Shown: positions 5,513 through 56,929, counted from the stretch's first letter. The stretch: DNA of 64,000 nucleotides from Lytechinus pictus (GCF_037042905.1 NC_087251.1:12588001-12652000); one strand, 5' to 3'. Translations and numbers: made by a program. The notes: generated from the sequence alone by a model not told the origin.

Positions 5513-5791
5513 TCTCATCTCCTTCAGAATCAATTACTAGTCAACCTCAACTTCAACACTAGGGGAAAAAACAGAAGAGATCTTTATAAAATTGCACACA
5601 GACTAATTAAAGCAGTAATTACTAAAATGCTTTGCAATAAGTTTTTAAAAAAATCTCATCCCCTTCAGAATCAATTACTTGTCAACCTCAACTTCAACAC
5701 GAGGGAAAAACTACTAAAAAATAGAAGAGATCTTTATAAAATTAACACACAGACTAATTAAAGCAGTAATTACTAAAATGCTCTGCAATAA
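5513..5791 (+). repeat. Tandem duplication, two copies, ~141-bp period
   Basis: TCTCATC..CCTTCAGAATCAATTACT..GCAATAA occurs at 5513-5640 and again at 5654-5791, with a few substitutions and a short indel. Confidence 0.9.
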
Positions 5792-30376: not shown

Positions 30377-30548
30377 CTGGAGGGTGTTTCATAAAGCTGT
30401 TCGTAAGTTAAGAGCGACTTTAAGAATGACTGGCGATCCTTTCTTGTGGTATTGGTATATTCATTGGCAATGGTTAAGCGCGTAAGAAAGGTTCACCAGT
30501 CATTCTTTAAGTATTAACTTATCAACAGCTTTATGAAACAGCCCCCAG
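30377..30548. mobile_element. Foldback MITE (~170 bp)
   Basis: The left arm CTGGAGGGTGTTTCATAAAGCTGTTCGTAAGTTAA..GAATGACTGGCGATCCTTTCTT pairs with the right arm AAGAAAGGTTCACCAGTCATTC..ACAGCTTTATGAAACAGCCCCCAG. Arms are ~65-70 bp with a short spacer. Confidence 0.85.
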
Positions 30549-33370
30549 GTCTCATCTTTATCCCTCAAAGGAAGATGGAAGCTATAGCCGCTATCTTCTA
30601 TTTTTTCTATGAATTACAAGAAGAAAAAAAAATCTAGAATCTTCCTTCCTGTTCATTGTAAAGTGTATGCAGAGAGTATGGTGTATGTCAGTCTAAAAAA
30701 TGAAATGGCTTTGATTGTTGAGTCACTTGCTTTGGTGCGAATGTAAGTTAAAAGGGGCTTACCAATACAAGCTCTGCTTTTTCATTAGTCCTTAATTTTC
30801 ATTTTCATGTTATGCAGATTATTTGAAAAAGTTAAAGAAAACATGAACTCAAATGAACTGAAAAATTCAAGTGCGAGACATGATGATGTAAACCCTGTGT
30901 GGAGATATACCCTTCCGCCTCCACCCTCATGATTTCTCATGATGACACTAACCCCTAACCCCTTCTTGCTCCATGCCGATGATGAGTATGTGATAGCTTG
31001 CAATATGATATTGGCTTGAGGAACTTACGACACTGAATCAATACCGATACAAGATGCCTCCAAAACAAAAACATGGAGACATTATTCTTCAAAAGATTAT
31101 CATCTTGCAATCCAAGCTAGCATCCACAAGGAACAAGTAATATCAAAACTACAAACCATCCAACATCAATATCAGATATCTCTCTCAGATATATGATTTC
31201 ATATTCTTTATTCATATTAGATCTTTTCACATGAAGAAGTTTAGTGTTAGGGTAAAAGCAATGGAACAGTCCTGTTTTATAGCACTATTACCACTCAGGA
31301 CCTTTTCTTTTCTAATCATCCCAATTTTTCATTGACAAAACAATAGGGGGCAGAAAAGCTGCCCTAAAATGCTGCAAGTGATGGATACAACATTAAGTAA
31401 ACAAAATTTAGAGTAGTCATGTACAGTATAAACTATAAACATAAAATAATTATGCAGAGCAATTATCATGATACTTTGTTTGTCTGAATATTGTTAACAA
31501 TGACGGTGATGAGAAATTCGACAACATAAATGTCAGCTAATTGTTTCAGCAGATACAACTCGAAACTTGAGTGTGACTGTGAACTATAAATGTGTAAATT
31601 GTTTACGATACTACAACATGTAATACCATTACTCTGCATAGGTGGAGTTTACTCTTAATGCAAGCAATTGTTTATAAATGGTTAGCTTCCAGAGAGTTGG
31701 TTTGAAAGGCTCTGCCAACAGGACACATGTTAAACTGTAATGGTACCAAAGAAAAGATGAATATTTCATAAAAGCTCTGCTCTGGTATGAATGCTGCATC
31801 ATAATAAGAAATAATCTATATTGGCATACAAGATCATGTAAAAGCTCCCCCATTCACCTTGCTTAAAAGGCTATTTTAAATGACAAAATGATTCTGATAA
31901 TGCACATTGCAGTATACTTACATTGTAGCCCCTAGGGAACAAATCCATCAACATGAAACAAAATATTTATCTTGATCTTGAGATAAATATCAAATGATGC
32001 GAAGTCAGGGATAAAAATCTACTAATCAAAATTGCTCTTGTAAAAGTGATTTGTTGTCTCTAATACTATTCTCAATGAACTAAACCCAAATCAACCTTGA
32101 AAAAAAGAAAAATATTACATGTGTATCCAGAATATTGCAAATTTAATTTCCAAGCAAATGTTGCAATTATTACATGACACATTCTGAAAAGAAATTATCG
32201 AAAATGATAAGATCAGCTAATTGTAACTGTTATTCTAGTCACAGTTGAGCATTTGTTTAAGTTGCATTTTACTAGAATATTGAAATATATTAGTTGCCCA
32301 CTTGCCCCAGTTGACCAATATAATCTAGCCATTTTGACATTTTCTAAAAGTGTGTTCTGGAAATCTCTAGTTACATTCATGAATACTTCCCCTCGATTAA
32401 GACTTTATATATCTACCTAAAGAAGTCTTTAATACCTCTCTGATTTTCCATTCAATTTATTTTCATATTTTATCAAGTCTGAAAACAAAATTAGGAGCTT
32501 GTGATACCTATCAGAATAGAAGTGGATGATTTGTATTCAAGACCTTGCTGTAAAGAGTTAAATTCTCCTGCTTACCTTATTTCCTTTGATTTTGTTTCGA
32601 TTCAATTTGGAAATTCCATTACTGAATTTTAATGTAAATGGATACAGCAGCATTCATCAAAGTAAAAAAAAAAACACAATTCATAACATAAATCAAATAA
32701 AGTAGCCCCAAATTTACCATGAATCTGACAGGCAATGTTTTATTTAAACTACAATCTACCCATGTTCCGATCTGATGACCAACATGGCCTGATGAAATGA
32801 AAACCATCTTGAAAGAGAAAGAGGTATCCATAAGACGCCTGTGTATCTAATTCAAACTACTATCATTAATCTCCTACTCCTATACCCACTCACTTGCTGG
32901 AGTTGACATCATAAACATGTATGGATCACAATGGATCCCTCACACAGCATATACCATCAAAAAGCTCTAATTTGTTAGCCATGAATTTGGTTCAGAATCA
33001 GTCTTAATCATCTTTCAGCTCTAATGGAGGTTGGTATATGGCTAACCATTGTCAAAGAAAAAGCATTCATACAGATATCTCGAAGACGACTGTCATTGTT
33101 AATCTTGAAAAGCTGGTGACTCATACCGCAAATGACAGCAACTGCAGATATTATTGGTGGCAATTATCAGATGTAGCCCTTATTTGATATGTGATATCTT
33201 GCCTTCATTAGTTCATTGATAGATGGAAATTTCTGAACGTTCTTTATTATTTGCTCATCTTGATATTAAAGAAAAAAGTGCATTTGTGAAATTGTTGTTA
33301 AACTTGTTATTAAGCCAAAAGCTGCCAAGCAACATAAATAAAGTACATTCCTTTCAAATAAAATTATTCT

Positions 33371-33443
33371 AAAGTCAAAAAGGGGCCTAAGCTTTCGATC
33401 CTAGCAGAATCTTCTTCGGAGGCAAAATGACCTTAATAATAAT
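33371..33443 (-). mobile_element. 73-bp insertion with 15-bp target-site duplication, Penelope-like terminal-repeat fragment
   Basis: AAATAAAATTATTCT is repeated directly at 33356-33370 and 33444-33458. The insert contains a hammerhead-like fold. Confidence 0.7.
33385..33423 (-). ncRNA. Minimal type I hammerhead ribozyme-like motif (variant core)
   Basis: The minus strand reads GCCU-CCGAAGAA-GAUUCU-GCU-AGGAUC-GAAA-GCUU-AGGC. Helix I is GCCU/AGGC, helix II is GAUUCU/AGGAUC, followed by GAAA and a palindromic AAGCUU helix III region. The core differs from CUGANGA by a U-to-C change and an extra A. Confidence 0.6.
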
Positions 33444-36400
33444 AAATAAAATTATTCTTAATGTAAGGAGTGTGCAGAAAATATTTAACCTTGCATTCTT
33501 TTGTTTCTTTTGCATTTTTCTCACACAATATTAAAAGTACTACCCTTTGTACACAATTTTACCCATTTATTATAATGACAAAAATCAATTAAGACACTTA
33601 TCTGTTTGTAGAAAAACTGCCAAAACATTGGCTGCACATTTTTGTCGAATGTGGTTTATTTGTAGATGGAATTTGTTAAAACATTACCACATTTAGATTA
33701 TATTTCATCTAGCATATTTTCAATTTGCCTCAGCAGATCGAAAGGTTTAAAGTGAACAATGAAGATAGTCAGTTTTTATTATCTTTTACTATCATTTTAC
33801 GATCACGTTGATTACACCCACAACTTTTTTGTGTACTTACCCCCTGATGTCCACACAATGATTATGCATGTATAACCACATACTGTACATAAATTTGTAG
33901 CTGAGCAAGTCCACACAAGGTCATATTCTATTGATTAAATAGTGCCACAAGCAACACCTTCGGGGACATCATTCATAAAATGTGTGTAGGCGTGAGTGTC
34001 CTTTACCTCATATTAACCATTTCATTCTAGATCATGACTGGATGAGTTGGAGAAAAAAACACACTCTAATTTCTACCAAATAGATTGATGGAAATAATCA
34101 ACCAAAAAGGAGACAAAGTGGAAATACCTAAATACTTATCAAAATTTAATGAAATGTAAGTTTTTATTTGTTATAAATCTTGATTTTTTTTTCGTAATAT
34201 CTAAGTCACTTTTATTTCAGAAAAAAATATGAAAAATGTACATTGACCCAGATCCTCTGATAGTGAATTTATTTCATTCCCTGGCTATCAGTATGGTCAC
34301 ACAAATAAAACAGATGCAAATAAAAACAAATGATTTAATCAATTCAAAGTAAAATAATTACAATTCCACAGTGCCAGTAAAACACAATCTACATCATCAA
34401 GGGAGAAGGGGATTTTTTAAAGTGAGAAAACTGGTTCTTGTGGTCAAGGAGTTTGGAGGAGAAAGAAAGCGTAATCTCAATTTAACACCCACCTAATCAC
34501 AAAAATATGCTAGGTATTTCGCTAACTGACCAGTGTGAAAACAGAATACCCACATTACCTCTGAAAGAAAACACAAACAAATAAGTACATACCTTTTTCA
34601 AAATTAAACAGAATTTTCGCAAAGATTACACCAAGGTCGCTGTGATATTAGCCGTGTGAAAGCACACTAAAAGAACTTTTGACATGAGCTTCCTTGGCCT
34701 TGCAAGTCTTGTAGCACACAACCTTAAGAACTTTATCAGGTTCAGCCAGAAGTAATTAGACAGAGTATATTACCAAGTGCTTTGAGGCATGAACAAATTC
34801 TGATGATTTCTAGATATTTCATGATCAGGAAGATGTGAACATACTACAAGAAAGAAAGAGTAATCTCTATCAAACCCCATCAACAAATGCAAGGGACGTC
34901 GAAGTGTGTCAAGTGGATCGGTAAACATGTGGACAGACACCTGACTCTCTTCTTTTGCCTATTTGAAAAACATTAGATTATCCACCCAGGACCCTTTTCT
35001 GTGTTTTCATGGAATGGAGGTTATATTTCCTTTCAATAGACAACATGTTAAAGGGTTTCTGAATGTTTTATATTCTTATAGTCATTTAGGGGAAAAAAGA
35101 GTTTATTTTAATTTTTTTCAAGCATATAATGGGAACATTTAGATATCAATTAAAGTCTAGCCAATTTATAATGTCTCGTATCAACAACAGATAGCATTAG
35201 CTTTGAAATTAAATGTCAGTTAAACGAAAATCCTTGATTTCCCCAAAACATATTCTAAATAAAATACACCAATACTGATTTTTCAACAAAATGCGGCTTT
35301 AACTAAGGGAAGGAAGAAAATGTGAAATCCACAAGCACAATGTCAAAACTTCTGATAAGATAATGATATGACTACTGCATTTTTGTGATTCCCATCGGTT
35401 TTGTACAGGGACCATCTAATTCCAACAAACGATGGGTTAAATACATTTGTGATTTTGGAACTAGAATTGTACAAACATAAATTAAACTTCATTATTAATT
35501 GAAAAGAGCTTCTGGGTATATTCAAAGATAAAATAAAGTTAGAACACAGTATTCACAAATATAAAGGTTTGTTTGGAGGAGGCAGTTTTTAAACATGTAA
35601 ATAGAATTGAAATAAAGGCAAATTTACAAAGAAGAAAACACACCACACAACTCATTAAAACTACAGCAGCTTATGTTTTCTTTAAATGGAACCAAAAGCT
35701 GCATTGATCTCCCATGAGCCCCACCTATCTATTTTGATGTAGTTAGAAAGAGTGTAAATCACCAGCTAAAGCCTGGAGATTGAGAGAGATTTTGGCGAGA
35801 TTTATATGATTGCAGGTGGATAAGTGCAAAGGAAATTCTCAGCTAGGGAGCTCTAACCGCAAGTAACTACATGTAAATTAGGCAAAATGCACTGAAAGTG
35901 TGTTTTCTTTGTCAAACAATCCAAGAATGGAGTAGTTTGATGATGATGATGTTGAGAATATGTTACCTGCTTTCAATTTGAAGCTGATATCAAACAAGAT
36001 TAGAATAAGAATAATAAACTTTCTAACAGCTCCCATATTAGATGCTGATGGAAAAAGCAAAATTTCCAAAGCCTTTTTAATAAAGAAACACTGGTTTTTA
36101 TAAATATGTAAATAAACATTTGAACTGTCAACCTAACTTCTGAAGGAAATGCATTTTCTAGAAGTTATAGGTGATTATAACACTTGGAATTTAAAATCTG
36201 CATTGTCATTGGGATAGAAAACAAGGTTATATAGTGCACAATTATAGGGTTACACATTTTTAACTGCATATTTTCAATGAGAAATTCACACACAAAATTC
36301 AATGATGAAATTCATAAAAATATGAAAATCAGAACTTAAATCCCCCTGCAAGCAATGTAAAAAGTGTCAAAATGAGGCCAAGTTGAAGGAGCACCACAGA

Positions 36401-56652: not shown

Positions 56653-56845
56653 CTCTGGATTGCCTCCGACCATGATATTGGTAGACTCTAGCCTGGTGTG
56701 GACCACGTTGTTCTCATGGAGAAAGGCCAGACCCTGTGATATCTGACAGGACAGGGAGTGCAGTATGGACTCACTGAACTTGTCCAGGAACTTTGGAAGG
56801 AACTGCTGCAGGCAGCCATGCTGGTAGTAGGTGGTGCAGATGTAT
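56653..56845 (-). CDS. Internal coding exon of a protein kinase-fold (pseudokinase-like) gene, subdomains V-VIb
   Basis: Acceptor CTGCATCTCTCTCAG|A and donor GAG|GTGAG bound 193 nt (1 nt + 64 codons): YICTTYYQHGCLQQFLPKFLDKFSESILHSLSCQISQGLAFLHENNVVHTRLESTNIMVGGNPE. This matches the kinase pattern y..G.L..fl ... QI..GL.fLH...vvH.L...NI.v. GC is elevated relative to the flanks. Confidence 0.9.
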
Positions 56846-56929
56846 CTGAGAGAGATGCAGACAAATAAATTTTCTGTTAGATATGAGGAGGAAGAGGACA
56901 CTTGTGATGAAGTAATGTAGAACATTATA

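Follow-up and report, generated by a model that had tools for sequence, protein, structure and literature searches.

Penelope-like elements (PLEs) carry hammerhead ribozymes whose role has been called unclear (Craig et al. 2021, PMC8557442). Penelope itself has an internal promoter within its repeat (PMC2377424), and an initiator-like TCACT has been noted in the pseudo-long terminal repeats (pLTRs) of rotifers (PMC3846280). In an Anolis PLE, two internal start sites of the reverse transcriptase (RT) define the tail, and ribozyme cleavage is unnecessary in vitro (PMC11167929). For L1 and SVA, an untemplated G at full-length 5' ends is accepted as a copied cap (PMC4859970). Here we describe a short insertion in a 64,000-nucleotide stretch of Lytechinus pictus DNA (NC_087251.1:12588001-12652000; "the window", with positions counted from its first letter). 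It is an ordinary truncated terminal-repeat stub of a PLE, one of more than 100 alike. Very probably, it belongs to the shortest insertion class of a young autonomous Neptune-like element and arose by internal priming near the 5' end of an uncut, capped RNA, followed by run-off.

Insertion, target-site duplication and empty site

Two copies of the AT-rich 15-mer AAATAAAATTATTCT form a direct repeat with 73 bp between them (Table 1), and their coordinates were re-found as given in a preliminary description of the locus. Perfect 15-mer repeats within 200 nt have 113 start positions in the window, nearly all of them in tandem or simple repeats, so the 15-bp repeat is by itself weak proof of insertion. 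The insertion is real because the empty-site allele, with a single 15-mer, is present in a relative, organism B. Contigs from sequencing runs X2 and X7, which represent two studies of this organism with flanks about 93–94% alike, skip exactly 88 bases (33356–33443), and 15 letters, equal to one 15-mer, fit both sides. Four runs were searched with 31500–35500, and the site was bridged in X2 and X7 and in neither X5 nor X1. The region 33356–33458 thus holds a true insertion with a target-site duplication. Since base 33370 can be assigned to either target or element, the duplication measures 14–15 bp.

The insertion was initially taken to be a solo element of 73 bp. Only 62 bp belong to the element; the rest is filler at the 5' junction. 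Similar fillers occur in other family copies, often repeating target sequence. The copy is single within the window, while the genome holds about 1,500. In the same runs the repeat family is covered very deeply, and some of its contigs match as far as 33432, the extra G. Two further segments nearby, 31536–31617 (~80 bp) and 34009–34052 (44 bp), are missing or replaced in organism B.

Table 1. Features of the insertion and its host gene (window coordinates).
Feature	Position	Strand	Basis
Target-site duplication, copy at element 3' junction	33356..33370	+	Single copy at empty site, runs X2 and X7
Helix I, 3' strand, AGGC	33385..33388	-	Pairing in 8 sequences
Predicted cut site	between 33389 and 33388	-	
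G12-A13-A14, palindromic AGCU (helix III as dimer only), U17	33389..33396	-	Palindrome covaries in relatives
Helix II, 6 bp, G10.1-C11.1, loop GCU	33397..33411	-	100% paired; 1 compensatory and 1 single-sided change
Core C3-C4-G5-A6-A7-G8-A9 plus unpaired A; U4C at 33418	33412..33419	-	Parse; family counts
Helix I, 5' strand, GCCU	33420..33423	-	100% of cells paired, 8 sequences
GTCA(T/C)T motif, initiator-like; probable transcription start	33425..33431	-	Present in 8/8 aligned sequences
Extra G (T in full-length element); probably reverse-transcribed cap	33432	-	Base counts
62-bp element: start of PLE terminal repeat, from extra G to first 3' end point	33371..33432	-	Match to L014/L032
11-bp (ATT)n-like filler, 5' junction	33433..33443	-	Outside element; absent from empty site
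Target-site duplication, copy at element 5' junction	33444..33458	+	Repeat match; empty site
Host exon upstream of the probable intron; pseudokinase subdomains without catalytic HRD	56653..56847	-	PF07714, E 7.7e-12; 97% to P0007 residues 462-526

A young family of Penelope-like elements

The 812-Mb eukaryotic assembly was searched with window positions 33340–33480, and the best 40 of 704 candidates were scored. Exact patterns recovered 1473 core matches, and 790 copies extend into the 3' untranslated region (UTR) of the element. Many copies reach 0.2 to more than 1.5 kb upstream with varied 5' stops, and all share one end place. Two of the five long loci fetched at 10 kb contain stop-free frames, of 878 and 909 amino acids, with RT and GIY-YIG motifs. 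Pfam identified the RT (PF00078) and gave no GIY-YIG match; the GIY-YIG and CCHH motifs were assigned by inspection of the sequence. One full-length element (L032) has the terminal repeat at both ends, and its linker between RT and endonuclease (EN), C-X4-C-X2-C, is conserved in the protein alignment (A2). Long copies with the C4 core (see below) differ from L032 by 0.4–2.2% substitutions, indicating a young family.

The window copy differs from the 3' end of the full-length elements L014 and L032 only at core position N7 and at its first G. The suggestion of a very short retrotransposed product, derived from a truncated PLE repeat, is thus borne out, as the same 62 bases end full-length elements and the duplication is true; the expected linkage of other copies to Penelope RT/GIY-YIG frames was also found. 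By its coding sequence, the family is an autonomous EN-containing (EN+) PLE with a predicted single open reading frame (ORF), in which a C-terminal GIY-YIG domain follows the RT. It would be Neptune-like, a clade call made by the CX2-5CxxC linker only, which Nematis shares (PMC8557442).

Structural variants were also seen among the longer loci. A tandem duplication of about 160 bp lies in the 5' leader of the full-length element (L032 5346-5656; L035), and truncated PLE copies occur within tandem arrays with units of ~1.2 kb and ~0.42 kb (L034 1-9901 and L031 7049-9901).

Origin of the short copies

The extra G of the window copy recurs across the family. Genome-wide, the base before GTC is T in 924 copies, G in 109, A in 25 and C in 8, compared with G 14 and A 52 at a control position three bases further in (first 100 of 104 starts; Fisher p 2e-16). 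Of 41 G-start junctions analyzed, 26 end short, as the window copy does, and 13 about 60 nt later, after a tail; two could not be parsed, and none of the 41 continues into the UTR. Head-to-head inverted pairs account for 9 of the 39 parsed junctions. Duplications of 7–26 nt flank 28 of the 30 non-inverted ones, and in 23 of these 28 the extra G lies outside the duplication. Examples of inverted stub pairs are G000:C2:17943128-17943175 (L042/L043) and C2:54800021-54800082 (L048/L049), among others; in L043, an internal deletion joins helix II to the tail.

We propose that transcription of the element would begin immediately 5' of the hammerhead. AT-rich DNA would be nicked by the GIY-YIG domain, and the RT would prime internally at one of two sites. 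When priming falls in the repeat that forms the transcript's 5' end, synthesis would run off after ~62 or ~125 nt, the RT would copy the cap as G, and the cDNA end would be joined with a short filler. The extra G is probably the copied cap, and in that case it would mark a promoter start eight bases before helix I. Run-off that reaches the transcript start implies a template uncut across the ribozyme site. The 5' ends of copies also point to uncut templates, since they are not enriched at the predicted cut site (30, versus 30 at a control two bases upstream, both counts including point mutants). The hammerhead would then be a passenger in the window copy. Fold-back self-priming was considered as a source of the extra G and rejected, as by inspection it would yield A.

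An alternative is that the ribozyme is active in vivo, helped by dimerization or protein, that the RNA is re-ligated or circularized, and that the stub is a random 5'-truncated copy. The remaining features of the minimal hammerhead are intact and covary in relatives, a viroid hammerhead with the same core change keeps enough activity in vivo (PMC3088659), and the ribozyme of the Anolis PLE needs protein to cleave (PMC11167929). Re-ligation would likewise leave the site intact in insertions. However, a circular template has no 5' end, which leaves unexplained why 109 copies begin at one base and carry an extra G, and 5' ends do not pile up at the cut site. We therefore regard this alternative as unlikely.

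Less likely still is that the stubs form a non-autonomous family, resembling short interspersed elements or retrozymes, that is copied from its own short masters by the PLE protein in trans. More than 100 near-identical short copies with their own duplications would suit such a family, and animal retrozymes are reported as derived from PLE terminal repeats (bioRxiv 10.64898/2026.07.22.740005). Yet G-start copies comprise at least five sequence variants, all five of which also occur among long copies, and they share no private flank. These shared variants imply that G-start copies arose repeatedly. Nor were tandem head-to-tail short units seen in the loci read. The preliminary description had offered a retrozyme-like unit as one possibility, which we abandon because the 62 bases terminate autonomous elements.

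Several points count against run-off from a capped end. Genome counts came from exact-match patterns, which miss diverged copies. The junction sample is biased, combining top BLAST matches with the first 30 of 109 by position, and two of its rows share flanks. Short AT-rich "duplications" may have arisen by chance, and in 5 of the 28 junctions the extra G is part of the target duplication. By an initiator consensus, +1 would fall three bases further downstream, on an A that shows no excess of G; a second capped start at this A was rejected for that reason. Terminal-transferase activity at an uncapped end could also have added the extra G. Both start site and cap are read from genomic junctions only. 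We nevertheless favor internal priming on uncut capped RNA.

The hammerhead motif and its relatives

The minus strand parses exactly as first written. The core given there, CCGAAGAA, is rightly called non-canonical (U4C); it comprises seven core nucleotides and the unpaired A that usually separates positions 9 and 10.1. Pair probabilities in the 62-nt element are 0.91–0.95 for helix I, 0.80–1.0 for helix II, and 0.96–0.99 for an outer GUCA/UGAC stem. The folding energy of the whole fragment falls short of significance (z -1.52, matched by 10 of 200 shuffles), and an Rfam scan of 33000–33800 gave no hammerhead at E≤10, nor any other credible family. Neither result alone backs a ribozyme; what does so is comparison across the family and its relatives. 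In the minimum-energy co-fold of two copies, the helix II strands pair between molecules and no helix III forms, which is weak evidence either way.

Protein relatives are encoded by 11 metagenome loci, six of which include the hammerhead motif. These six were aligned with the window copy and L014 (alignment A1, 8 sequences). Helices I and II are fully paired, with one compensatory change in helix II. One relative (L098) has U3-A8 in place of the C3-G8 pair. Four versions of the helix III palindrome occur (AGCU, AUAU, AAUU and ACGU), and seven of the eight sequences are palindromic there. As exceptions, C3-G8 is broken in L096 and the palindrome in L095. Cells with two-sided changes outnumber those in all but 3 of 500 shuffles; three of the five measures fail to beat shuffles, and 8 related sequences make a small sample. 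By these comparisons, the motif is a minimal type I hammerhead of the PLE kind with a non-canonical core, and both the short palindromic helix III and the covariation anticipated for the helices were recovered.

The outer GUCA/UGAC pairing proposed earlier fares differently. It forms in the predicted fold, and with each sequence in its own register 4/4 pairs are possible in five sequences and 3/4 in three. In A1, only 40.6% of its cells are paired and no compensatory change is seen in the relatives, so that a conserved helix is unsupported.

Five of the metagenome contigs (L088-L090, L093 and L095) contain PLE proteins 85–88% identical to the window family; although they come from different datasets, four of these hardly differ from one another. 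Motif-pattern matches in two other collections, viral_contigs (1) and genome_contigs (8), all lack hammerhead context and were set aside as chance (9/9).

The U4C core change

Among the 1495 copies counted, 1473 (98.5%) have C at core position 4 and the other 22 have U; the U-to-C change queried in the preliminary description is therefore close to fixed. Neither the window copy nor those 1473 copies have the canonical core CUGANGA. At N7, the window copy has A and most of the family C. The 22 U4 copies might be taken for a surviving active lineage, which we rejected; CpG decay explains them because the mirror-image CpG change is equally frequent (21 copies). One older and more diverged U4 copy (L087, 7% substitutions) may be ancestral.

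All six relatives with the motif keep U4. A tree of nine RT/EN rows, three of them without the motif region and with L094, L097 and L098 left out, nests the C4 family within U4 lineages with starred support. Taken together, alignment and tree indicate that U4C is derived, a family-wide state and not decay of the window copy. A U4C hammerhead of a viroid has considerably lower activity in vitro, though enough in vivo (Ambros and Flores 1998, via Perreault 2011, PMC3088659). By analogy, U4C would weaken the ribozyme of this family. It is thus conceivable, if somewhat short of probable, that the lineage lost or nearly lost self-cleavage through the derived U4C and that capped, uncut RNA then gave rise to its roughly 1,500 copies.

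Host locus

The exon in Table 1 is the only recognizable one in the window, with sea urchin protein matches of 86–99%. The next exon (G000:C7:12560001-12562076), a collinear minus-strand match to P0007, lies outside it. The gap of ~82.6 kb between window position 56653 and G000:C7:12562076 contains the insertion. The locus (G000:C7:12559463-12665281) encodes a GRL101-like seven-transmembrane (7TM) domain, followed by a pseudokinase lacking HRD. An older model, P0007, joins the two across the gap, while newer RefSeq models in relatives (P0001, P0003 and P0005) split the gene there, reading into the intron; the intron is therefore probable only. The claimed sense position in a pseudokinase intron is right as to the minus strand between collinear exon matches, so the insertion probably lies, in sense orientation, in an intron of a 7TM-pseudokinase gene. 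Despite the sense orientation and probable intron, it is scarcely credible that the host keeps or uses the copy as an intronic ribozyme acting on this pre-mRNA, given a recent insertion absent in organism B, a weakened core with no helix III as monomer, and an orientation that is a coin toss (56 forward and 53 reverse G-start copies genome-wide). Most likely, the window copy does nothing in the host intron.

Two other features were seen in the window. Nested inverted repeats at 30377–30548, with arms of 35 and 29 nt that are ~90% complementary, resemble a hairpin element of the miniature inverted-repeat transposable element (MITE) type, and a tandem duplication with a unit of ~140–150 bp occupies 5521–5768.

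Comparison with known systems

The insertion itself, one of more than 100 similar stubs, is unimportant; the family bears on the role of hammerheads in PLEs. A young, highly amplified family in which the core change is fixed, set against close relatives whose core is normal, offers a natural test of whether PLEs need the ribozyme. If self-cleavage was lost as suggested above, the family would be a natural loss-of-function experiment, and PLE hammerheads would be dispensable for spreading in vivo. The stubs would also show, to the base, where transcription is likely to start and where the two priming sites lie. The literature search found neither a U4C PLE family nor a cap-derived G in PLE insertions; supplements were outside its coverage, so a published variant is possible.

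Among described elements, the Neptune-clade EN+ PLEs share the order of domains, an RT followed by a C-terminal GIY-YIG domain with CCHH and the CX2-5CxxC linker, as well as partial tandems, inverted 5' copies and an optional tail (Craig et al. 2021, PMC8557442). The Anolis carolinensis Poseidon PLE, PAc (Frangieh et al. 2024, PMC11167929), has in common with the window family two internal RT starts defining the tail, AT-rich targets, insertion from uncut RNA, and no ends at the ribozyme cut. The two differ in that the start sites here lie in the non-coding leader, ~300–600 nt before the ORF, in the tail (30–40 nt in PAc, ~60 nt here), and in the Neptune-type CX4CxxC linker of the present family. 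The evidence for PAc was obtained in vitro, whereas ours is genomic. Non-LTR (long terminal repeat) retrozymes (bioRxiv 10.64898/2026.07.22.740005) likewise combine a type I hammerhead, a PLE origin and many dispersed monomers. Their defining feature is a tandem array in which every unit has a hammerhead and no ORF. No such head-to-tail arrangement appeared in the 87 loci read from this genome, a sample short of the whole genome.

The closest match for the motif is the minimal hammerhead ribozyme of metazoan PLEs (Cervera and De la Pena 2014, PMC4209133), with which it shares a 4-bp helix I, a long helix II, G10.1-C11.1, the unpaired nucleotide between 9 and 10.1, and palindromic 15.2-16.2. 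The U3-A8 variant, here present in a relative, and the predominance of single dispersed copies from truncated PLEs are shared as well. That report, in its accessible portions, describes U3-A8 and no U4C family, whereas C4 is found here in nearly all counted copies. The same core substitution is known from the viroid hammerhead (PMC3088659). There it is a rare variant of a full hammerhead with tertiary contacts; in the present family, it is fixed in a minimal motif.

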